Of a DNA stretch of 64,000 nucleotides, positions 6,939-59,966 are shown one piece after another. The first letter of the stretch is position 1, and each line of letters opens with the position of its first letter. Where the stretch lies: positions 2,123-66,122 of the forward strand of contig JAGMCI010000014.1 of NCBI GenBank assembly GCA_023129325.1. Direction: 5' to 3'. Source of the stretch: a candidate division WOR-3 bacterium (lineage in GTDB: Bacteria > Hydrothermota > UBA3073 > JACQXS01 > JAGMCI01). Below the pieces are notes generated by a model. It saw nothing but the letters and a program-made list of their open reading frames with translations. It did no database searches and was not told the origin of the DNA. Position numbers and translations under genes: made by a program.

Positions 6939-8053
6939 AAATTTGGGTCTTAGGACCAACTTATCCATTTAGAGGTGGTATAGCTCATTATACAACCTTG
7001 CTTGTGAAAAGTTTAAGAGAAAAATATCAAGTTAAATTCATCTCTTTTAAACATCAATATCCTTCATTTTTATTCCCTGGTAAAAATCAACTTGACATAA
7101 GTAAAATACCCCTTAAAATAAAAAATGAACCAATTTTTAACCCATATAACCCAATGACTTGGTTTTACATAGTTACAAGAGCTAAAAAAAGTATACCCGA
7201 TATGTTCATTTTTAATTGGATTACTCCATTTTTTGCATTACAATTTTTAATTATTATATATCTATTAAAACAGTTCACAAAAATTAAGATTTTAATGATA
7301 TGCCATAATGTAAAAACTCATGAAAGAATGTTAGGAGAAAATATCCTTACGAAACTGACCTTTGGCAAGGTGGATTATTTCATTGTTCATTCGAAAAAGG
7401 GTTTAAAAGCTCTAAAGGAAATAAAGCCAAATGCATATATAAAAAAACATCCGCTTCCAATTTATGACTTTTTTAAATATAAAAATATTTCAAAAGATGA
7501 AGCTCAAAAGAAAATAAATGTTTCTGGAAAAGTTATTCTTTATTTTGGTTTTGTGCGAAAATATAAGGGATTAATATATCTTATTCAAGCTATGCCATTA
7601 GTGTTAAAAGAATATGATGTAAATCTTTTAATTGTAGGTGAATTTTGGGAAAATAAAGAAAACTATCTTAAAGAAATTAAAAAACTTAATATTATAAAAA
7701 AAGTGCAAATAATTGATAAATATATTCCAAATGAAGATGTTAATTTATACTTCTCATCAGCAGATGTTGTAGTTTTACCCTATATTTCTGCTACCCAAAG
7801 TGCTATAATTCAAATTGCTTATGGCTTTGATAAACCTGTAATAAGCACTAAAGTAGGAGGAATTCCGGAAGTTGTAAAAAATGGAATAGCTGGGTTTGTC
7901 GTTCCACCCGAAAACCCAAAAGCTTTAGCTCGTGCTATTATATCATTTTATAAAGATAACAAAGGGAAAGAATTTATAAAAAATATAAAAAAAGAAAAAA
8001 AGAAGTTTGAATGGAATAAGTTAGTAAACGCCATAGAAGAATTGGTAAAATGA
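6923..8053 (+). CDS. Glycosyltransferase, GT4-like (GT-B fold)
   Basis: C-terminal region LPYISATQSAIIQIAYGFDKPVISTKVGGIPEVV, a divergent EX7E-type block. Confidence 0.75.
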   Translation: MQNTMKIWVLGPTYPFRGGIAHYTTLLVKSLREKYQVKFISFKHQYPSFLFPGKNQLDISKIPLKIKNEPIFNPYNPMTWFYIVTRAKKSIPDMFIFNWITPFFALQFLIIIYLLKQFTKIKILMICHNVKTHERMLGENILTKLTFGKVDYFIVHSKKGLKALKEIKPNAYIKKHPLPIYDFFKYKNISKDEAQKKINVSGKVILYFGFVRKYKGLIYLIQAMPLVLKEYDVNLLIVGEFWENKENYLKEIKKLNIIKKVQIIDKYIPNEDVNLYFSSADVVVLPYISATQSAIIQIAYGFDKPVISTKVGGIPEVVKNGIAGFVVPPENPKALARAIISFYKDNKGKEFIKNIKKEKKKFEWNKLVNAIEELVK

Positions 8054-9249
8054 ATATTTTAATAATAACACCTAAATTTCCTTATCCTTTAGATGATGGA
8101 CACAAAATAAGATTATTTAATCTTATAAAACATACTTCTAAAAATCACCGTATTTCACTTATTTCACTTTGCGATTCTCCTGTAGGGGCGATTCATGAAT
8201 CGCCCCTACAAAAATACTGTGAAGTCATTGAACTTGTTAAAGTAAACAAATATAGTATGAAAAGATTTGTAAAACTTGCCCCGGCTTTATTCTCTAATAC
8301 TCCAATTTCAGCAAAATTCCTTTTCTTTCCCAAAATGGCAGAAAAAATTAAAAACTTGCTTCAAGTAAGGGCGAGGTCACCTCGCTCCTACTCTCTTGTT
8401 CAAATTGAGCATTCATATATGGGGCTTTATCTTGATGTCATTAAAGAGTTTAATGTTCGTAAAATACTTACTGTCCATAATCTTGAATTTTTAAGATTTC
8501 CAAGAATGTTTAAAGCATCAAGACCTGGTGGACGAAAACTTGCCTTTTTCATTGATTCAACAAGAATGTGTTACTGGGAACCAGAATTAGCCAAGAAATT
8601 TGACCACATAATTACGGTATCCGAGAGAGATAAAGAAACATTATCTGCCATAGAACCAGAATTAAATATATCAGTAATTCCAAATGGCGTATCTCTTGAA
8701 TATTTTTCTCCTTCAGTAATTCCGCCGGAACCTAATTCACTACTCTGGGTTGGTTCTTTACTTTATGAAGCAAATAAAGATGCAGTAATTTACTTTATAA
8801 ATTCAATTTTACCATTAATAAACAAAGAAATACCAGATGTAAAATTACACATAGTTGGAAAAATTACTCCTAAATTTGAAAATAAACTAAAGAAATACAA
8901 AAATGTAATAGTAGAAGGTTATGTATCTGATGTAAGACCTTATATTGAGCGATGTGAAGTTTTTATAGTTCCATTAAGAGCAGGTGGTGGCACAAGACTT
9001 AAAATCCTTGAAGCAATGGCTATGGAAAAACCTGTAGTTTCAACCTCTATTGGCTGTGAAGGCATAGATGTCGTCCATGGCAAAAACATTCTTATTGCAG
9101 ATACTACAAAAGATTTTGTCAAAGAGACTGTGCAACTTTTGCAAAACAAAGAAGTAAATGAAAAAATTAAAAAAAGTGCCCGAAAATCTGTTGAACAGAA
9201 ATATAATTGGAAAAAAATAGCCAAGCAATTAGGAACAATTTATTCATAA
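8050..9249 (+). CDS. Glycosyltransferase, GT4-like, carrying two in-frame palindromic insertions
   Basis: PLRAGGGTRLKILEAMAMEKPVVST block. The odd peptides SPVGAIHESPLQ and VRARSPRSYS are encoded by palindromes. Confidence 0.8.
   Translation: MNILIITPKFPYPLDDGHKIRLFNLIKHTSKNHRISLISLCDSPVGAIHESPLQKYCEVIELVKVNKYSMKRFVKLAPALFSNTPISAKFLFFPKMAEKIKNLLQVRARSPRSYSLVQIEHSYMGLYLDVIKEFNVRKILTVHNLEFLRFPRMFKASRPGGRKLAFFIDSTRMCYWEPELAKKFDHIITVSERDKETLSAIEPELNISVIPNGVSLEYFSPSVIPPEPNSLLWVGSLLYEANKDAVIYFINSILPLINKEIPDVKLHIVGKITPKFENKLKKYKNVIVEGYVSDVRPYIERCEVFIVPLRAGGGTRLKILEAMAMEKPVVSTSIGCEGIDVVHGKNILIADTTKDFVKETVQLLQNKEVNEKIKKSARKSVEQKYNWKKIAKQLGTIYS
8181..8210. repeat. Perfect 30-nt palindrome in frame within a CDS
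   Basis: TGTAGGGGCGATTCA/TGAATCGCCCCTACA. It is 10 codons long and encodes PVGAIHESPL. A degenerate relative lies at 8364-8392. Confidence 0.85.
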
Positions 9250-10824: not shown

Positions 10825-11954
10825 AAGTAGCAATTTATTCACCAGTTTATCCACCTTCTAAGGGAGGATTAGAATATGTAAGTTCTTCAATGGCAGAGTC
10901 TCTTACAAAATTATGTGATGTGTCTGTATTTACTACTAATGTAGAATTAGGGACAGGCAAAAAAATTTGTAATGATTTCAAAGGAATAAAAGATGGAGTA
11001 GTTGTAAAAAGATATACTCCAAAAATATTCTCTCTTTGCAAATTAATTCATCCTCAACTGTATTCATGGGACTTAGTAAAAGACCTTTGTGAGCATAAAG
11101 TAGATGTCATTCATCTTTATGGTTTTTTTCAATTTCCAATGCTTCTTTCAATATTAAAATATGTAAAATGCCCTACAATTTTATCACCAGTAGCTATATT
11201 TGAGAATTCAGAGACATTTATGCATTCGCTGCTAAGGAGATTTTTACTTAGAAGCATCTGCAAATATATTTCAAGAAAAGTAGTTAAAGTTATAGCTTCC
11301 ACATCCCAATATAGAGAGTTGCTTATATCTCTGGGATTTGATAGAAAAAAAATAGTAAATTCTCTAATCCATGGAATTAATTATAATAAGTTTTCTCACA
11401 TAGTAAGGAAAGAAGAAGACTTAATATTATGTATAGGAAGATATGCCTGGAATAAGGGCTTCCATATATTGATAGAATCTGCTAAATCTATATTAAAACT
11501 TAATCCTAATCTTAAATTCATTATAGCAGGTAAAGTATTTGATAAAAAATATTATGCCAAACTGAACAAAATGATAGTGGGTGAAGAAAGGATAGAATTA
11601 AAAACCAATATTACTGAAGAAGAAATTTTAAACCTTTACTCAAGAGCAAAAATATTTATCTTCCCCTCAATAGCAGACAGTTTTGGGATTGTTAATTTAG
11701 AAGCGATGGCATCAGGAATTCCTGTTATAGCAACAAAAGTAGGAGCAGCTCCTTCATTCTTAAAAAACAATATAGATGGAATATCGATAAAACCTAATAA
11801 TAAAGAAGCCCTAACGAATGCAATCATTGAATTATTAAAAAATGAAAGAAAAAGAGAGTTCTTTAGCCTCAAAGGGGAAGAGACAGTCAAGAAATATGGA
11901 TGGGACAAAATAGCACGAGAGACATTAAAAGTCTACGCGGAAGTAAAGAGATGA
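10821..11954 (+). CDS. Glycosyltransferase, GT4
   Basis: FPSIADSFGIVNLEAMASGIPVIATKVGA block. Confidence 0.85.
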   Translation: MKVAIYSPVYPPSKGGLEYVSSSMAESLTKLCDVSVFTTNVELGTGKKICNDFKGIKDGVVVKRYTPKIFSLCKLIHPQLYSWDLVKDLCEHKVDVIHLYGFFQFPMLLSILKYVKCPTILSPVAIFENSETFMHSLLRRFLLRSICKYISRKVVKVIASTSQYRELLISLGFDRKKIVNSLIHGINYNKFSHIVRKEEDLILCIGRYAWNKGFHILIESAKSILKLNPNLKFIIAGKVFDKKYYAKLNKMIVGEERIELKTNITEEEILNLYSRAKIFIFPSIADSFGIVNLEAMASGIPVIATKVGAAPSFLKNNIDGISIKPNNKEALTNAIIELLKNERKREFFSLKGEETVKKYGWDKIARETLKVYAEVKR

Positions 11955-35531: not shown

Positions 35532-36587
35532 ATGAAAATATTCAAGGAAAAAAAAGAACTCAGAGATACAATTATTCAAAAAACTACAATTCCATCAGCA
35601 AAATTTCTTGATGGCTATGTCCCTTTTGGTCCTGGCACTATTTGTCTTGAGCCTACAAATAGATGTAATTTGAAATGTAAAATATGTGCACGTAGTTACT
35701 GGAATTCAAAAATACAGCTTGGAGATATGCCTATGAAAACCTTTAAAAAGATTATCCCTTATTTTTCAAAAAGAGTTAGTGTAAGCTTACAGATGTTTGG
35801 TGAACCATTTATGGCACCAAATTTCTTTGAAATGTTGCATATTAGCAAAAAAAAAGCCCTTGAGATTGTTATCAATACAAATGGGACACTATTTACACCA
35901 GAAGTTTCTGCTCGTATAGTTAAAGAGGGAATTGATTTACTTGCTATATCAATAGATGGAATTAAAACTTTAAAATCTATTAGAGGTATAGATATTAACC
36001 TAATAATAAAGAACATTAAAAATCTCAATAAGGCAAAAGAGAAAACAAAGAGTCAAAAGCCAAAACTTACTATTGCTTTTGTATCAATGAAAGAAAATAT
36101 TGAGGAACTTCCAGATATGATTGATTTTGCTAAAAATTATGGATTTTCTGGAATCCATGGCGTACATCTAAATATACACTCAAAAACTTTACTAAACGAA
36201 ACTTTGTTCAAGCATAAAAAGTTAGCTACTCATTACTTTAATCTTGCCAGGAAAAAAGCTAAAGAATTAGGGGTCGGCATTTCGCTACCTTCTATTAGTG
36301 AAGAAACCCATTTTTGCAGACAGCCATTTGAATCATTATGGATATCATGGAATGGTGATGTCCGTCCTTGCTGTGCCTCAAATGTTCATGAAAAGGGGTC
36401 CATTGTTTTAGGAAATATTAATGAATCTTCACTTGACAAAATATGGAATAATGAACGAATGCGGAGGTTAAGAAAAGAACTTCTTGGATTCTTTCCGCTA
36501 AACGAATATTGCAAAGGATGTCCTTTATACAGCACAAAACCAGAAAATTTCATAAGGTTGCTTGATGAAAATAGCAGTAATTCATAA
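35532..36587 (+). CDS. Radical SAM enzyme with C-terminal SPASM-like cysteine cluster
   Basis: CNLKCKICA (CxxxCxxC). The C-terminus has CRQPFESLWISWNGDVRPCC...CKGCP. Confidence 0.85.
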   Translation: MKIFKEKKELRDTIIQKTTIPSAKFLDGYVPFGPGTICLEPTNRCNLKCKICARSYWNSKIQLGDMPMKTFKKIIPYFSKRVSVSLQMFGEPFMAPNFFEMLHISKKKALEIVINTNGTLFTPEVSARIVKEGIDLLAISIDGIKTLKSIRGIDINLIIKNIKNLNKAKEKTKSQKPKLTIAFVSMKENIEELPDMIDFAKNYGFSGIHGVHLNIHSKTLLNETLFKHKKLATHYFNLARKKAKELGVGISLPSISEETHFCRQPFESLWISWNGDVRPCCASNVHEKGSIVLGNINESSLDKIWNNERMRRLRKELLGFFPLNEYCKGCPLYSTKPENFIRLLDENSSNS

Positions 36588-37779
36588 TCTTCCATCTGGA
36601 GGAGCGAAAGTAGTCTTATATTGGTTTGTGAAAATACTTAAAAACAATCATTTGATTGATGAATACTGTCTTTCAACTTCAGAAAGAAAGTTTTATAATC
36701 TAAGTGAAATGGTTAATAAAACATATATTTTCTCATATACTCAAACAAAAAAGTTTAAGACTATTCTCTGGCGTTTTAACTTTGTCCTTAACTTCCTCGA
36801 CCTTTTTCGCTTGAATCGTATATACAAAGAGATTGCTAAAAAAGTAGATGTTGAGGGATATGATGTTGTTTTGATGACGCATGATAGATTTATACAAACT
36901 CCTTCTTGCTTACGATATTTAAAGACTCCCACCCTTTATTATTGCCATGAACCATTTTCAAAGTTCTACAGGAAGCATAAAAAAGAATCAATTCGTAAAT
37001 TAACTCTTCCATCATTTTCTCAACTATATGATAAGACTCTTAAATGGATAGATAAATCTAACATAAAATTTGCTCAAAAGATATTAGTAAATTCCAAGAA
37101 TACAAAAGAAAATTGTAAAAAAGCTTATGGAATAGAAAGTAAAGTGTGTTATCAGGGTGTAAACACAGACATATTCCGTCCACTCAACAATGTAGGCACG
37201 AATTCAATTCGTGCAATTGAGGAGGAAAATTTTGTCCTCTCGGTGGGTGCTTTAGACCCAGTCAAGGGACACGATTTCATAATAAGAGCACTTGGCAAAA
37301 TAGATAAAGAGATAAGACCCTCACTTAAAATTGTATACGAGAGAACCACTGAAGGATATAAAGAACATCTTTCAAAATTTGCAAAAAAACAAGATGTAAG
37401 GGTTCATTTTTTATGTCGCATTTCATCAGGAGAACTTATAAATCTCTATAATAAAGCAAAATTTCTTATCTGTGCTCAATATAATGAACCCTTTGGACGC
37501 ACCCCATTAGAAGCAATGGCCTGTGAGATACCGGTAATTGCTGTAAATGAGGGAGGATTTAAAGAAACCATTTTACATAAAAAGACAGGCCTCTTGGTTA
37601 AAAGAGATATTAATGAACTTTGTAATGCAATAAATATGTTACTCTGTAGTCCCAAAAAAAGAAAAGAATATGGAAAAAACGGACGCAAGTATATTTTAGA
37701 CAATTGGACCTGGGAATCTGCAGCAAAAAAGTTAGAAACATATCTATACCAGGTTTCTGAAGGAGGTAAAGGTGTTTAA
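36562..37779 (+). CDS. Glycosyltransferase, GT4
   Basis: AQYNEPFGRTPLEAMACEIPVIAVNEGG block. An in-frame palindrome GCACGAATTCAATTCGTGC lies at 37196-37214. Confidence 0.8.
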   Translation: MMKIAVIHNLPSGGAKVVLYWFVKILKNNHLIDEYCLSTSERKFYNLSEMVNKTYIFSYTQTKKFKTILWRFNFVLNFLDLFRLNRIYKEIAKKVDVEGYDVVLMTHDRFIQTPSCLRYLKTPTLYYCHEPFSKFYRKHKKESIRKLTLPSFSQLYDKTLKWIDKSNIKFAQKILVNSKNTKENCKKAYGIESKVCYQGVNTDIFRPLNNVGTNSIRAIEEENFVLSVGALDPVKGHDFIIRALGKIDKEIRPSLKIVYERTTEGYKEHLSKFAKKQDVRVHFLCRISSGELINLYNKAKFLICAQYNEPFGRTPLEAMACEIPVIAVNEGGFKETILHKKTGLLVKRDINELCNAINMLLCSPKKRKEYGKNGRKYILDNWTWESAAKKLETYLYQVSEGGKGV

Positions 37780-50664: not shown

Positions 50665-51461
50665 ATAAACAAATTCAGGATGAAGAAAACGAATTCAGTT
50701 TTGAAGCTTTGCTTAAAGCGACTTTAAGCAACTTTGAAGTAAGAAAACAAGGAAATATTCCTCTCCTCAAGTTAATTGAGAAAGAAATACAATGTAAAAC
50801 TTGGCCGTTAAAGATATTAGAAGCGGGATGTGGCAGTGGGGTTGACTCTTACTTGCTTAAACAATGGAACCCAAATAAGTTAGAGGTTTTCGCTCTTGAT
50901 ATTGACCTAAATTCTATAAAGACTGTTCAGTGGTGGAGGAAGTATTTTCAGTATCCCATTAAACTTATCCAGACCAACCTTTACTCTATGCCTTTTCTTA
51001 ATGAGGCCTTTGACTTAATCTTTAGCCAAGGAGTACTTGAGCATTTTAAGAATCCTAACCCTTTGATGCAAGAACAAATTAGGATATTAAAATCAGATGG
51101 TACTTTAATAATTGATGTGCCACAAAAATATAGTCCTTATACTATTGGTAAATATTTGGATAAGAAAAGAGGAAAATGGAAAATAGGCTATGAAACTCAA
51201 TATTCTTATCATGAACTCGTGAAATTAGGAATGGCTCACGGACTCAAAGCGGTTCACTCCTTGGGTTACGGGCATAACAGGTTATTTCGTTTTCTCAGGA
51301 ATCCTTATCGTATTTTGCAAAAATACCGCATTATTCCTCACGGATTATTTCCCTCTTTTCGTTATGTGGATCGTGTCTTGGAACGATTCTGGGAACGATT
51401 AGATTGGACTTTGGGGCGTTATTTTGCTACTTCAGTAGTTGTAAGCTTTAAACGAGTATGA
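50661..51461 (+). CDS. Class I SAM-dependent methyltransferase
   Basis: ILEAGCGSGVDS and SQGVLEHFKNP motifs. Confidence 0.8.
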   Translation: MNKQIQDEENEFSFEALLKATLSNFEVRKQGNIPLLKLIEKEIQCKTWPLKILEAGCGSGVDSYLLKQWNPNKLEVFALDIDLNSIKTVQWWRKYFQYPIKLIQTNLYSMPFLNEAFDLIFSQGVLEHFKNPNPLMQEQIRILKSDGTLIIDVPQKYSPYTIGKYLDKKRGKWKIGYETQYSYHELVKLGMAHGLKAVHSLGYGHNRLFRFLRNPYRILQKYRIIPHGLFPSFRYVDRVLERFWERLDWTLGRYFATSVVVSFKRV

Positions 51462-52639
51462 AGATTTGTATAGTATCACATAATTTTCCTCCTACTATAT
51501 GTGGGGTAGGAGATTACAGTTATTGGCTTGCGAATGAACTTGAGAATTTGGGTAATAATGTGAGTGTAATTACATCTAAAATTGGGTCATCGGGTTATCG
51601 GGTCATTGAGTCATCGAATCAGGTAAAGATATTTCCTATAATTGAAAAATGGGATGTATTTCATATCTTTAAAATAATCGGCATTTTGAAATGCATAAAG
51701 CCCAATATTATAATAATCCAATATGTATCTCAATTATATGGAAGGGCAGGTATTGCACCAGGAATTATATTTTTTCTAACGCTTATAAAATTGTTCAATG
51801 TTTCACACATTCAAATAATCACCACTTTACACGAACTTTATCTCCCCTGGGGCTCAAAGGATTTTATATTAGGAGCAATTCAAAGGCTTCAAGCTTTTAT
51901 CCTTGTTTTAATCTCAGATGCAGCCATTGTTACCACTAAGTCAAGAAAGAAAATACTTAATTCCCTCTTCCCTTGGAAAAGAGTATATAAAATCTCTGTA
52001 GGGTCTAATATACCAATGGGAAGTAGGAAGCGGGAAGTGAGAAGTAGGAATCACAAAGATGATAGGCTAATTTTGGGTACTTTTGGAACTCTTCATCCGG
52101 AAAGGGACTTATTAACAGTTCTTAAATCTCTCTCTATGATTCAAGTAGGGGCGTATTGCTATACGCCCCTACTTCAAATTATAGGGGAAATAGATAAAGA
52201 CTCAGAAAATTACCGCATTTTAAGAATTACAGCGAAAAAACTTGGAATAGAAGAAAGGATACGCTGGATGTCAAACATTTCTAATCAAGAAATAGCTAAT
52301 TGTTTGGCGAATTCTGATATTTATTTATCACCAGAACTTGATGGTGCTTCAGGAAGGAGGACAACTTTAATGGCTGCCCTTTCACTTGGGCTCCCAATAA
52401 TTGCTTATAATGGAAGGGAAACGGAGTCTGTATTTAAGAATTATGAAAACATAATCCTTATTCCTCCTCATAATTCTAAAATACTGACTGAAAAGATAAT
52501 GGAACTTATCAAGAATAAAAAGCTTCGGGATTCTTTGGGTAAAAAAGCAAAGGAAACTTTTAATACTTATTTTAGCTGGGATATTATAGGTAAAGAATAT
52601 GAAAAGATTTTCAAAACTATCTATCATACAACGAATTAA
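51458..52639 (+). CDS. Glycosyltransferase, GT4-like, with two in-frame repeat insertions
   Basis: GT-B layout, with GRRTTLMAALSLGLPIIAYNG as the C-terminal block. Confidence 0.7.
   Translation: MKICIVSHNFPPTICGVGDYSYWLANELENLGNNVSVITSKIGSSGYRVIESSNQVKIFPIIEKWDVFHIFKIIGILKCIKPNIIIIQYVSQLYGRAGIAPGIIFFLTLIKLFNVSHIQIITTLHELYLPWGSKDFILGAIQRLQAFILVLISDAAIVTTKSRKKILNSLFPWKRVYKISVGSNIPMGSRKREVRSRNHKDDRLILGTFGTLHPERDLLTVLKSLSMIQVGAYCYTPLLQIIGEIDKDSENYRILRITAKKLGIEERIRWMSNISNQEIANCLANSDIYLSPELDGASGRRTTLMAALSLGLPIIAYNGRETESVFKNYENIILIPPHNSKILTEKIMELIKNKKLRDSLGKKAKETFNTYFSWDIIGKEYEKIFKTIYHTTN
52018..52051. repeat. Heptamer array in frame
   Basis: GGAAGTA GGAAGCG GGAAGTG AGAAGTA GGAATCA, encoding GSRKREVRSRNH. 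Confidence 0.85.
52144..52173. repeat. Palindromic hairpin in frame
   Basis: AGTAGGGGCGTAT TGCT ATACGCCCCTACT, encoding VGAYCYTPLL. Confidence 0.85.
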
Positions 52640-55927: not shown

Positions 55928-56667
55928 ATAAAGTAATAACTTCAGAAAGATGGTTTCCGGAAACTTTTAAAAAAGATATAGACTTTAGATATCTTCTTAC
56001 AAAACATTATTGCAAAGACAAAGTCGTCTTAGATGCCGGATGTGGAGTTGGATATGGAGCTACTATATTAGCTGCCACTGCAAGAAAGGTTTTCGCTGTG
56101 GATTATTCGAAAGAGACCATAAATTATGCAAAAACTAATTATAAAGCATCGGAACTTTCATACCTTGTCATGAATGTAAAAGAACTTGGTTTTAAACCTC
56201 ATAGCTTCGATAGAGTAGTAACCATTGAAGTTTTTGAGCATTTCCGTGAATATAATACTTTCCTTTTTGAAGTTAAAAGAGTATTAAAAACAAATGGCAC
56301 TTTTATTATGAGTACTCCAAACAAAGTTTTCCATACCATTGACCAAAAGGGCTTAAAATATTATGAACCTTACCATGTAAACTTAGTTAACTTCAAGACT
56401 TTAAAAAAAATCTTAAATAACTATTTTTCATCTGTGAAAATATGGGGAATAGGAAAACATAAAAATCATTTTTATAAATTATTGCAACTGCTTGACTTTT
56501 TAAATTTCCGACTTTTTTTAAAAGAGAAACAGCGAAAAATAATTAAAAAAAATCCTGTATTTATAAATAATAGTGATTTAAAATATAAGGAAGAAATTGA
56601 ATTAAAATCTGTAAATCATTGGAATGCTCATACATTTCAAGGATTCTTTGCTGTATGTGAAATATGA
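55903..56667 (+). CDS. Class I SAM-dependent methyltransferase
   Basis: VLDAGCGVGYGA and TIEVFEHF motifs. Confidence 0.8.
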   Translation: MAQFNTLINKVITSERWFPETFKKDIDFRYLLTKHYCKDKVVLDAGCGVGYGATILAATARKVFAVDYSKETINYAKTNYKASELSYLVMNVKELGFKPHSFDRVVTIEVFEHFREYNTFLFEVKRVLKTNGTFIMSTPNKVFHTIDQKGLKYYEPYHVNLVNFKTLKKILNNYFSSVKIWGIGKHKNHFYKLLQLLDFLNFRLFLKEKQRKIIKKNPVFINNSDLKYKEEIELKSVNHWNAHTFQGFFAVCEI

Positions 56668-57461
56668 AAATTAAAATATGCATAACAGTAGATATGGAAC
56701 AAGATATCCCTCCAATTATGCAAACATATAAAGGAATAGAAATTGGTATTCCCTATCTTTTAAATATCTTCAAGACTTATAAAGTAAAAGCAACATTCTT
56801 TGCAACAGGTAATATCGCAGATAAATATCCAAAAATAATTTCTGAAATAATAAATAGAGGTCACGAGATTGGCTGTCATGGAATGTGGCATGAAGATTTA
56901 AGCGCATCGAATTACCAAGATAAGTCAAACAGAATTAGTGAAGCGACTCGGATAATAGAAGATATTGTGGGAGAAAAAATTGTGAGCTTCAGAGCTCCTT
57001 ATCATTTGATAAATGCTGAATTGCTTTCTGTTTTGGAGTCACACGGTTATCTTATAGAAGCATCTAAATTTCAGAAGTCAGAAGTCAGAAGTCAGAAGTC
57101 AGATATGCCTTACTATCCAAATAATATGAAGATATTGAGAGTGCCATTATCTCTTCCTCCCGCTTCTTACTTCCCGCTTCTTACTTCCCGCTTCTTACTT
57201 TCTTTATACAATATGTCCTGGATTCTTGGATATAAATATGCAGTTTTCAAACAAAGAAGAGAAAAAATAAAAGTTATAATTCTTGGCTCTCATTCATGGG
57301 AATTCGTGGACATTCCTGAATCTCCTGAGAATTATAGGAAAATATATGGTAAACACTCACGGGATAAATTAAATGAATTATTTAAATATTTGAATCCGTC
57401 AGCTGACGGAAAGAATGTAGAATTTATAACTATAAAAGAACTGCTTAAATATGATTTCTAA
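56664..57461 (+). CDS. Polysaccharide deacetylase-family protein with three in-frame repeat insertions
   Basis: KATFFATGNIADKYP...GHEIGCHGMWHE and SFRAPY motifs. Confidence 0.8.
   Translation: MKIKICITVDMEQDIPPIMQTYKGIEIGIPYLLNIFKTYKVKATFFATGNIADKYPKIISEIINRGHEIGCHGMWHEDLSASNYQDKSNRISEATRIIEDIVGEKIVSFRAPYHLINAELLSVLESHGYLIEASKFQKSEVRSQKSDMPYYPNNMKILRVPLSLPPASYFPLLTSRFLLSLYNMSWILGYKYAVFKQRREKIKVIILGSHSWEFVDIPESPENYRKIYGKHSRDKLNELFKYLNPSADGKNVEFITIKELLKYDF
57071..57105. repeat. Perfect heptamer tandem array in frame
   Basis: (TCAGAAG)x4 at 57071-57098 followed by TCAGATA, encoding QKSEVRSQKSD. Confidence 0.9.
57151..57202. repeat. 14-nt tandem array in frame, roughly inverse to the TCAGAAG array
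   Basis: (CCCGCTTCTTACTT)x3 at 57159-57200, encoding PASYFPLLTSRFLL. Confidence 0.9.
57395..57410. repeat. Perfect 16-nt palindrome in frame
   Basis: TCCGTCAGCTGACGGA, encoding PSADG. Relatives are at 33791-33806 and 59554-59569. Confidence 0.8.
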
Positions 57462-58676: not shown

Positions 58677-59966
58677 ATGAATATTTTAATAGCTGGTAAT
58701 GCTGACCTACCTCCCCCTTATGGAGGAATGGCAAGAAGAATTTCAAATAATGTTCGTGAATGGGAAAAATCTCATTTTGTTTCTATATTAACTTTTGGCA
58801 GAAAACCAAATCCCGGCTTAAAACATACAAAATTTTATAGTCTATATCCTGTAATTCACGAGTCTTTAAGAAAAATAGATTTCCTTAAAGGATTTATTAT
58901 TGCAAGTCAGAAAAGTGTAATACTTCTATTTTATTACTCATCGCTCTATAAGATAATAAAAAGGACTTTTGAATTGGTGCCGAGGGATTATAAATACGAG
59001 TTACTTCATTATCTTGGCTATGCTTGCAAATTATTGAAAATCATCAACAAGGACAAAATAGATATTATAGAGGCACAATGTGCATTTAAATATAGTCTTA
59101 TAGCTGAATTAGTAGGGGAATTTTCAGGTATCCCTGTCGTTATTTCTTCTTATGCTGAAGCAATATATTGGGAAGACAGAAAGGGTAAAGATTTAAGCAA
59201 ACGATACGATACGCTTTATAAATTGGTATATAATAAGGCCAAGAAAGTAATTTCTGCAAGTAAACATTGTGCTAAAGGACCTTTAAAATATATTTCTAAG
59301 AATAAGGTGGAAGTGGTTTACTCAAGCATTGACACACATCAATTTGATTCTTATTTTGATAAAGAGAAAGAAATCAAAAAAGAACTTGGTTATATTGATA
59401 ATAAAATTGTTTTATTTGTTGGACAGCTTTACTTAAGAAAAGGGCCTCAATACCTTGCAAAAGCATCAAGTGATATCATATCTCAATTTCCCAAGGTTAA
59501 AATTATATTTGTTGGCGAAGACTTTGGTGCAAAGAAAACAATTGTAGGAGCAATCCGTCGGCTGACGGATGAATTGCCCCTACATTCAAATAATATAATT
59601 TTCACAGGAAGGATAGATGATGAATATTTAAGGAAACTGTATGTTATTTCAGATGTTTTTGTCTTTCCAAGCATAACTGAAAATGAGTGCATGGGTATGT
59701 CAGCAAAAGAAGCGCTATCGGCAGGTGTCTCCGTAGTGGCATTTAAGATTGGCGGAATACCTGAAGCTGTGATAAATGGAAAAACAGGTTATCTTGTACC
59801 ACCAAGAGATGAGAAAAAGTTAGCTCAAAGTATTGTAAATTGCTTAATGCAAAATACAAAAGCAAAAATGAGAAATGAATGTCGTAAAAGAGCAAAAGAA
59901 TTATTTGATATAAAGGTCTCTGCTCAAAAGGAACTTCAAATATTAAAAAAGGTGAGAGGATTGTGA
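58677..59966 (+). CDS. Glycosyltransferase, GT4, with one in-frame hairpin insertion
   Basis: FPSITENECMGMSAKEALSAGVSVVAFKIGGIPEAV block. Confidence 0.8.
   Translation: MNILIAGNADLPPPYGGMARRISNNVREWEKSHFVSILTFGRKPNPGLKHTKFYSLYPVIHESLRKIDFLKGFIIASQKSVILLFYYSSLYKIIKRTFELVPRDYKYELLHYLGYACKLLKIINKDKIDIIEAQCAFKYSLIAELVGEFSGIPVVISSYAEAIYWEDRKGKDLSKRYDTLYKLVYNKAKKVISASKHCAKGPLKYISKNKVEVVYSSIDTHQFDSYFDKEKEIKKELGYIDNKIVLFVGQLYLRKGPQYLAKASSDIISQFPKVKIIFVGEDFGAKKTIVGAIRRLTDELPLHSNNIIFTGRIDDEYLRKLYVISDVFVFPSITENECMGMSAKEALSAGVSVVAFKIGGIPEAVINGKTGYLVPPRDEKKLAQSIVNCLMQNTKAKMRNECRKRAKELFDIKVSAQKELQILKKVRGL
59543..59584. repeat. Nested hairpin in frame
   Basis: TGTAGGAGCAA TCCGTCGGCTGACGGA TGAA TTGCCCCTACA. 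It is 14 codons long and encodes VGAIRRLTDELPLH. Confidence 0.85.

Follow-up and report, generated by a model that had tools for sequence, protein, structure and literature searches.

The stretch of DNA analyzed here (hereafter, the window) comprises 64,000 nucleotides (nt), C6:2123-66122, of a 57-contig, 2.02-Mb assembly (36% G+C, 89% complete; denoted G000) of a candidate division WOR-3 bacterium. Coding sequence makes up 91.5% of the window, whose genes are largely devoted to glycosylation. Four genes on the forward strand, all of which pass Pfam models of GT4 glycosyltransferases, contain five short palindromic elements: the gene at 8050-9249 (399 amino acids (aa); Glyco_trans_1_4, 5e-29; Glyco_transf_4, 3e-8) carries two of these, and the genes at 36562-37779 (405 aa; Glycos_transf_1, 6e-33), 51458-52639 (393 aa; Glycos_transf_1, 3e-19), and 58677-59966 (429 aa; Glycos_transf_1, 4e-32) carry one each. 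An earlier note, made from the sequence alone, had placed the palindromes at 8181-8210, 8364-8392, 37191-37215, 52144-52173, and 59543-59584, inside glycosyltransferase genes, and had likened them to repetitive extragenic palindromic (REP) sequences; all five are present, and they belong to REP families that are dispersed across this genome, often in frame within genes.

The element at 8181-8210 is the perfect 30-nt palindrome TGTAGGGGCGATTCATGAATCGCCCCTACA, a double-foot GTAG REP with the core GGGGCGATTCATGAATCGCCCC, that occupies codons 45-54 (VGAIHESPLQ) and folds, as DNA, into a hairpin of -14.7 kcal/mol (z = -8.2 versus shuffled controls); it is as long as the matching loop of the paralog and of orthologs, and no strand is assigned to this or the other double-foot elements. 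The degenerate double-foot hairpin GTAAGGGCGAGGT.ACCTCGCTCCTAC at 8364-8392 has the same build, occupies codons 106-114 (VRARSPRSY), folds at -8.3 kcal/mol (z = -4.6), and adds about 5 aa compared to homologs. The element in the second gene is a single-foot REP of the family denoted A, GTAGGCACGAATTCAATTCGTGC plus AATT (37192-37218, + strand; 27 nt), which is read as codons 211-219 (VGTNSIRAI). At 52144-52173 lies the double-foot REP GTAGGGGCGTATTGCTATACGCCCCTAC of family B, a near-perfect 30-nt palindrome with one mismatch to the consensus (codons 230-239, VGAYCYTPLL; -15.4 kcal/mol, z = -9.1). Finally, the 42-nt double-foot REP at 59543-59584 has the arms GTAGGAGCAAT and ATGAATTGCCCCTAC (the GCAATTCATGAATTGC variant) and a second hairpin in the loop; it is read as codons 290-303 (VGAIRRLTDELPLH), folds into a structure with a nested stem (-13.0 kcal/mol, z = -4.9), and, in the alignment, covers the segment between two beta-strands of GT4 homologs. 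The TCCGTC..GACGGA hairpin that the earlier note had described within this element is apparent in both the sequence and the fold.

Altogether, the elements are 23-42 nt long, and their DNA folds range from -8 to -15.4 kcal/mol (z from -3.7 to -9.1). GTAG heads are located at 8182, 37192, 52145, and 59544, and the copy at 8365 has the degenerate head GTAA. At 8182, 52145, and 59544, the layout is GTAG-GGGC…GCCC-CTAC, that is, a 5' GT[AG]G foot and a 3' C[TC]AC foot, with three G-C pairs at the stem base. All five elements are read in phase with GTA as a codon (frame GTA|GGN), and none shifts the reading frame, although two of the spans that had been described as exact multiples of 3 measure 29 nt and 25 nt. 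The pattern GTAGGNGC-N(6-30)-GCNCCTAC matches the window three times, against 0.00 matches expected from 100 shuffles. Location in GT4 linkers, as originally proposed, applies to the 37192 copy only, which occupies the interdomain linker (codons 211-219; the Pfam matches end at codon 203 and start at codon 218); the other four lie within domains, codons 45-54 and 106-114 in the N-terminal one and codons 230-239 and 290-303 in the C-terminal one. The elements do not align with conserved residues of orthologs because they occupy variable loops. No consistent target-site duplications were detected in the flanks of the copies; a TTCAA repeat around 52145 is isolated.

Across the genome, the catalog of GTAG-headed hairpins comprises nine or more families, with about 110 loci in total, and GTAGGGGC is about 7-fold over-represented (104 copies, 55 + 49, versus about 15, 8 + 7, expected). 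Family A is single-foot, with the consensus GTAGGCACGATTTCAAATCGTGC and 29 loci; family B is double-foot (GTAGGGGC…GCCCCTAC), with a consensus 28-mer, GTAGGGGCGTATTGCAATACGCCCCTAC, that is palindromic to both ends, and about 33 loci; the consensus sequences of the families C (17 loci), D, and E are GTAGGGGCAGGGCTTGCCCCTGCCC, GTAGGGGCAACCCTTGCGGTTGCCC, and GTAGGGGCGAACCTATGTGTTCGCCC, respectively. In the window, the elements at 8182, 8365, 52145, and 59544, with their GTAG…CTAC feet, are of the B type, and that at 37192 belongs to family A. The common outer arms that had been attributed to all five elements are a feature of the four B-type ones, whereas the element at 37191 lacks GGGGCG arms and represents the separate family GTAGGCACGA…TCGTGC. 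The inner hairpin of the 59544 element, TCCGTCGGCTGACGGA (59554-59569, no strand assigned), is a member of yet another family, (A)TCCGTCAGCTGACGGA(T), so that a single family can be rejected: the five elements represent two GTAG families and a third, nested one. The (A)TCCGTCAGCTGACGGA(T) family, with a central CAGCTG, has 53 matches genome-wide, 25 of these in coding sequences, and TCCGTCGGCTGACGGA itself occurs in four exact copies. Hairpins of this family occur by themselves, nested within a double-foot REP (window 59554), or directly next to a REP of the C type (C13:38829). Not listed in the earlier note is another hairpin of the CCGTCAGCTGACGG family, at 57396-57409 (C6:59518; no strand assigned), inside the open reading frame (ORF) 56664-57461.

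The REP families differ in their placement relative to the 1645 called genes, which make up 89% of the genome. Copies of family B are not depleted in genes (31 of 33; p = 0.58 against 0.89 expected), whereas, by the same measure, those of family A (11 of 29; p = 6e-11) and of families C and D combined (14 of 25; p = 3e-5) are depleted, and yet all 11 intragenic copies of family A are in frame. The genes hosting B copies are diverse and include those for IspG, FtsA, PheT, PolA (which also contains an A copy), UvrA, phosphoglucomutase (PGM), ThiE, a TolC-like protein, and a GT9 enzyme, among others, which rules out a phenomenon specific to glycosyltransferases; the palindromes are seen in glycosyltransferases here because the window is mostly a coding glycosylation cluster. 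Six of the B copies are so close to the beginning of their ORFs (within the first 8%) that they may be located upstream of the true start. The strict pattern has 12 matches genome-wide, all inside genes and 11 in the GTA-codon phase. Among the B copies in the two open phases, the GTA-codon phase accounts for 25 of 29; equal use of these phases is rejected for this 25:4 split (p = 1e-4), which is indistinguishable from that of ordinary GTAG tetramers in genes (3686:1003; p = 0.50). No B copy with an intact head is in the TAG-stop phase. The toleration of the double-foot family in genes at the rate of random placement is the best supported of the three points that this analysis adds.

A search for transposases of the RAYT/IS200-like type, suggested along with the original description of the palindromes, yielded five Y1 or REP-associated tyrosine transposase (RAYT) genes in this genome, four identified by the Pfam Y1_Tnp scan and the fifth, on contig C37, by homology (E 1e-40). 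The RAYT on contig C36 passes the NCBIfam model 'REP-associated tyrosine transposase' (143.9 bits, with the cut-off at 80) and has inverted pairs of family-A REPs on both flanks, making this a textbook REPtron. The C37 RAYT (C37:21226-21831, - strand; motifs NHIH, WQ, YIHYNP) matches, at E 1e-40, RAYTs of other phyla with the motifs NH[IV]H, WQ, and YIxNNP and resembles TnpA_REP subclass 2.4 (RAYT group 4), the REPs of which have three G-C pairs at the stem base and the double feet GT[AG]G and C[TC]AC (Quentin et al. 2018, PMC6006769). Directly after its HUH motif, this gene contains, in frame, a pair of C and D REPs, reading …NHIHGIIFIVDTDS-NVGAGLAPALNLSGATARVAPT-VGEII…, and the Pfam scan missed the gene because the embedded pair splits the domain. 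A B-type copy is located 38 nt past the stop codon. The C37 gene is the likely partner of the double-foot REPs.

The arrangement of two other transposase genes is different. The ORF of the RAYT at C56:33519-33887 (+ strand), flanked by GTAGCCGAGGGCTTTAGCCCTCG-type hairpins, stops after …RKNEDV, and the conserved C-terminal part …ENPVRKSIVEDF… continues about 100 nt downstream in another frame, so that this is a frameshifted or stop-interrupted copy. The Y1 transposase at C22:8619-8927 (- strand) is bracketed not by GTAG REPs but by two direct copies of about 50 nt (GAGTGCAACAACGATGTTGTTGCATGCAAAATCACCGATTTTGCACTCCAAA), an arrangement that looks more like the IS200 type or the terminal-inverted-repeat type.

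The B palindrome is by no means confined to this bacterium. At least 120 stretches of species-representative genomes contain the exact 28-mer GTAGGGGCGTATTGCAATACGCCCCTAC, and their record titles span more than 15 phyla, including Nostocales and other cyanobacteria, anammox and other Planctomycetota, Omnitrophota, Atribacterota, Zixibacteria, three groups of the candidate phyla radiation, Sumerlaeota, Nitrospirota, Chloroflexota, Ignavibacteria, Deinococcota, Acidobacteriota, and others. In these other phyla, most copies of the 28-mer are intergenic, and neither of the two open phases is preferred. At six loci in other phyla, it lies within or adjoins a RAYT gene; in five cases (L005, L015, L067, L068, and L091), a homologous RAYT gene contains the exact 28-mer in frame, immediately behind the HUH motif, giving the form …MPNHIHGIIFI-(C/R)RGVLQYAPT-…SPSxTIGAIxRGFK…. 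This arrangement agrees with the signature published for TnpA_REP subclass 2.4 (PMC6006769). Within the phylum of the bacterium studied here, the palindrome, with up to two mismatches, was found in 16 of the 201 sampled genomes, this genome having the most copies (14).

How the intragenic copies relate to the surrounding coding sequence was assessed by comparison with orthologs from other genomes (G001 to G003 and G005 to G008) and with solved structures. Protein relatives above 74-75% identity are not on record, and none above 75% was found for a true empty-site test. The 27 nt of the 37192 copy have been inserted cleanly (+9 aa): orthologs with 47-50% identity lack exactly these nine codons. 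In the EtfB-like gene C14:65233-66090 (- strand), there is a clean gain of 16 aa (NPASVSPSRGVSQYARTG) compared to G001 and G005, with a degenerate phase-1 B copy inside. For the double-foot copies, these alignments reject simple 30-nt insertion: most of them overlay pre-existing loop residues instead of adding 10 new ones. In the glycosyltransferase at 51458, for which an exact-protein look-up returned no record and orthologs with about 50% identity are encoded in G003, G006, and G008, the B copy overlays the native KYNVTL segment of the orthologs, with a net gain of 2 aa. The net change is 0 to +3 aa for the first copy in the glycosyltransferase at 8050 (relative to a paralog and orthologs), +3 in IspG relative to the nearest relatives and 0 relative to the next ones, +2 in UvrA relative to the solved UvrA and -2 to -4 relative to G002 and G001, -4 in FtsA, +3 to +6 in ThiE, +3 in PGM, and +5 in an XseA-like protein. 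Alignments with the solved UvrA, FtsA, ThiE, and PGM structures place the REP segments in loops.

The small net gains are explained, at least in part, by relatives that carry REP variants at the same codons. In the loop of IspG, G000 has a B core, whereas G005 combines the same arms with a nested insert of 24 nt; the arms are identical at 27 of 28 bases between the two genomes, and the proteins are 68% identical. At the same loop, a metagenome relative has GTGGGGGCAATTCATGAATTGCCCCTGC (the GGGGCAATTCATGAATTGCCCC core), G007 retains the short remnant GTAGGAGCAGCCCCTAC, and the basal loop GIKKPLQ is found in the two closest relatives. That the arms are nearly identical reflects one of three processes, namely, recent re-insertion, conversion, or selection on DNA. 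The site in the TolC-like gene is occupied by a B variant in G000, by a perfect GTAGGGGCACAATATATTGTGCCCCTAC (the CACAATATATTGTG variant) in G007, by an E-type REP on the other strand in G005, and by a decayed, 70%-identical B copy in G002, which belongs to the same genus as G007; all four states end on one CCCCTAC-AA foot. Similar pairs of variants are found in the GlmU-like gene, a HyaD-like gene, and dnaX, and the uvrA site likewise shows turnover. The different REP states at orthologous sites imply that the sites are older than the family-level splits and that the interior turns over in place, and bear out the earlier suggestion of a REP-like family that diversifies internally. Thus, occupied sites appear to persist while their cores give way to others or take up further hairpins, which is the second of the three added points in terms of support.

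Several other repeats were noticed at or near such sites. Where G000 has the B palindrome, the UvrA loop of G005 (L246) is 18 residues longer and repetitive (…TRTQAHKGTRAQGHKGNKV…), which points to a tandem repeat in this same permissive location. Another, longer composite element is GTAGGGGCGTATCGCCTGTCTCGCCGAGCCAAGGCAGACAATACGCCCCTAC (VGAYRLSRRAKADNTPLL in translation), which recurs in at least two genes, the GlmU-like gene (C3:115702-116748), which also contains a plain B copy, and at C27:41961-42012. Short tandem arrays of GTAGGGT (×4, C9:35708-35770) and GGTAATT (×5, C25:15407-15445) are unrelated to the REP families.

Taken together, these observations make it highly probable that the palindromes are REPs of the GTAG superfamily that are moved by the RAYTs of this genome and are retained, in frame, as translated loops of diverse proteins. 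REPs are short hairpins of single-stranded DNA that are not autonomous; Y1 HUH transposases (RAYT or TnpA_REP) spread them and keep them uniform in trans. The elements at 8181, 8364, 52144, and 59543 represent the double-foot type, in which a GTAG head is followed by a stem with three basal G-C pairs and by a CTAC tail, and that at 37192 the single-foot type, of the family that flanks the C36 RAYT. An intragenic copy would persist only if the frame is kept, the TAG-stop phase is avoided, and a surface loop or a linker is hit; surviving copies would then be read as short protein loops of 8-14 extra or substituted residues, such as VGAYCNTPL, VGAIHESPL, or VGTNSIRAI. Once occupied, a site would be long-lived, with the core replaced or re-homogenized in place and other hairpins inserted into the loop, and such in-place turnover would produce copies with common feet and different interiors. 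The roles of these particular RAYTs in mobilization, the translation of the hairpins, and their near-neutrality for the host proteins are predicted from sequence comparison. Some of the findings weigh against this interpretation. The C37 RAYT scores 73 bits in NCBIfam, below the cut-off of 80, and has YIHYNP where the subclass consensus is YIxNNP. No RAYT has the B palindrome on both sides in the 89%-complete assembly, and the pairing of family B with the C37 RAYT is therefore indirect. Furthermore, the double-foot copies encode 9-10 residues, with a net gain of only -4 to +6 relative to REP-free orthologs, which is not predicted by a simple model of insertion followed by toleration.

A rival explanation is that the motifs are not mobile but are built in place, by biased conversion or by selection, in the manner of DNA-uptake sequences, because a DNA- or RNA-binding factor favors them. 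The overlay of loop codons with little change in length, the IspG arms that are almost unchanged between G000 and G005 despite the divergence of the proteins, the codon-phase split that equals that of ordinary GTAG tetramers, and the DNA-repair genes among the hosts would all fit such an origin. Nevertheless, we consider it improbable: repeated assembly of a 28-nt sequence by point mutation is implausible, the insertions at 37192 and in the EtfB-like gene are clean, across phyla the palindrome is found in physical linkage with RAYT genes, and its patchy distribution within the phylum fits horizontal spread.

The other alternatives are weaker still. The palindromes could be recoding signals that are skipped by ribosome hopping or removed from the mRNA, as with the yeast-mitochondrial 'byp' elements or T4 gene 60, and so remain untranslated, and stable, G+C-rich hairpins within an AT-rich coding sequence would be consistent with such signals; however, every intragenic copy keeps the frame and avoids the stop phase, which would be needless if the sequence were skipped, and neither pairs of take-off and landing codons nor adjacent stops were seen at the five elements of the window, so that this possibility appears very unlikely. 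As for chance palindromes, or a conserved GT4 peptide motif (V-G-A/G…) that happens to be encoded by GTAGGNGC, GT4 enzymes do have a conserved …VGG/VGA… segment, and GTAGGAGC at 11739 of the window is not part of a REP. This explanation is already refuted by the zero matches expected from shuffles, by the same 28-mer in unrelated genes and intergenic DNA of more than 15 phyla, and by orthologous GT4 genes that lack the palindromes.

Returning to mobile REPs, the overlay might reflect the way in which such elements use a site. In REP-free orthologs, a native GTA-GAT (Val-Asp) is present exactly at the foot position in the XseA-like gene (G001 and G007) and in uvrA (G002). No native GTAG was found at the foot position of orthologs at 37192, in ispG, or in dnaX, so that GTAG as an obligatory pre-existing target, which held at two sites and failed at these three, is rejected and serves only as a lead. 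We tentatively propose, as a conjecture that we regard as rather doubtful, that intragenic REP sites are long-lived docking sites at which a transposase exchanges core cassettes between fixed GTAG and CTAC feet, the first arrivals being, perhaps, seeded at an existing GTAG. Such docking and core exchange would explain the few added residues, the different foot-sharing REP families at orthologous sites, the native GTA-GAT, and the GTAG-like phase. That GTAG may serve as the docking point is the least supported of the three added points.

The elements resemble those of Rickettsia in behavior only, being 23-42 nt long, tagged with GTAG, and linked to RAYTs. Rickettsia palindromic elements (RPEs), reportedly described by Ogata et al. 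in 2000, are selfish palindromic repeats that lie in frame in many genes and are translated as extra loops. The classical RPE-1 is longer than the elements described here, and no RPE is known to have a dedicated transposase. Short RPEs are tagged with CGTC (Di Nocera, De Gregorio & Rocco 2013, PMC3733652), and by tag and length, the present elements do not belong to the RPE sequence families.

The closest counterparts are found among the GTAG REPs. With subclass 2.4 of TnpA_REP, in which REP insertions inside tnpA_REP without a break of the frame have been reported, the present system shares the feet, the stem base, in-frame REPs inside a RAYT, and the scatter over many phyla including Cyanobacteria (PMC6006769); it differs in that 31 of the 33 double-foot copies are intragenic, that no RAYT is flanked by this family on both sides, and that the resident RAYT contains a pair of single-foot REPs instead of a double-foot copy and has YIHYNP as its Y motif. 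Intragenic GTAG REPs, including those in uvrA, polA, and tRNA-synthetase genes, have been described in a survey (PMC3733652) that, like the present analysis, found several families per genome and short GTAG-headed stem-loops in frame in known genes, with uvrA, polA, and a tRNA-synthetase gene as hosts. That survey, however, treats the elements as insertions, whereas here they are mostly overlays, with replacement of the core; the uncultured low-GC lineage studied here was outside its scope. The C36 RAYT, with its flanking inverted family-A pairs, and the arrangement of one RAYT with many REPs conform to the proteobacterial REPtron and REPIN-RAYT systems (Nunvar 2010, PMC2817692; Bertels & Rainey 2011, PMC3116915), except that classical REPs are extragenic, whereas family A, although depleted in genes, has the 11 in-frame intragenic copies. 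Thus, intragenic GTAG REPs and REPs inside tnpA_REP are a published phenomenon, of which this genome is an unusually dense and clean example in an unstudied lineage; the useful unexplained feature of this case is the combination of overlay with in-place core turnover.

The REP hairpins confer no special meaning on the glycosyltransferase cluster itself. For genome annotation, peptides of the VGAYCNTPL type or the RGVLQYAPT type in many uncultured phyla are to be read as loops derived from selfish DNA, not as functional motifs. More generally, this genome bears on the question of how REPs spread, given that one type resides in genes at the rate of random placement, including the essential ones for IspG, FtsA, PheT, UvrA, and PolA. 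Its orthologous sites record replacement, nesting, and erosion of the elements and could be used to test whether RAYTs insert REPs at GTAG and swap their cores in place.

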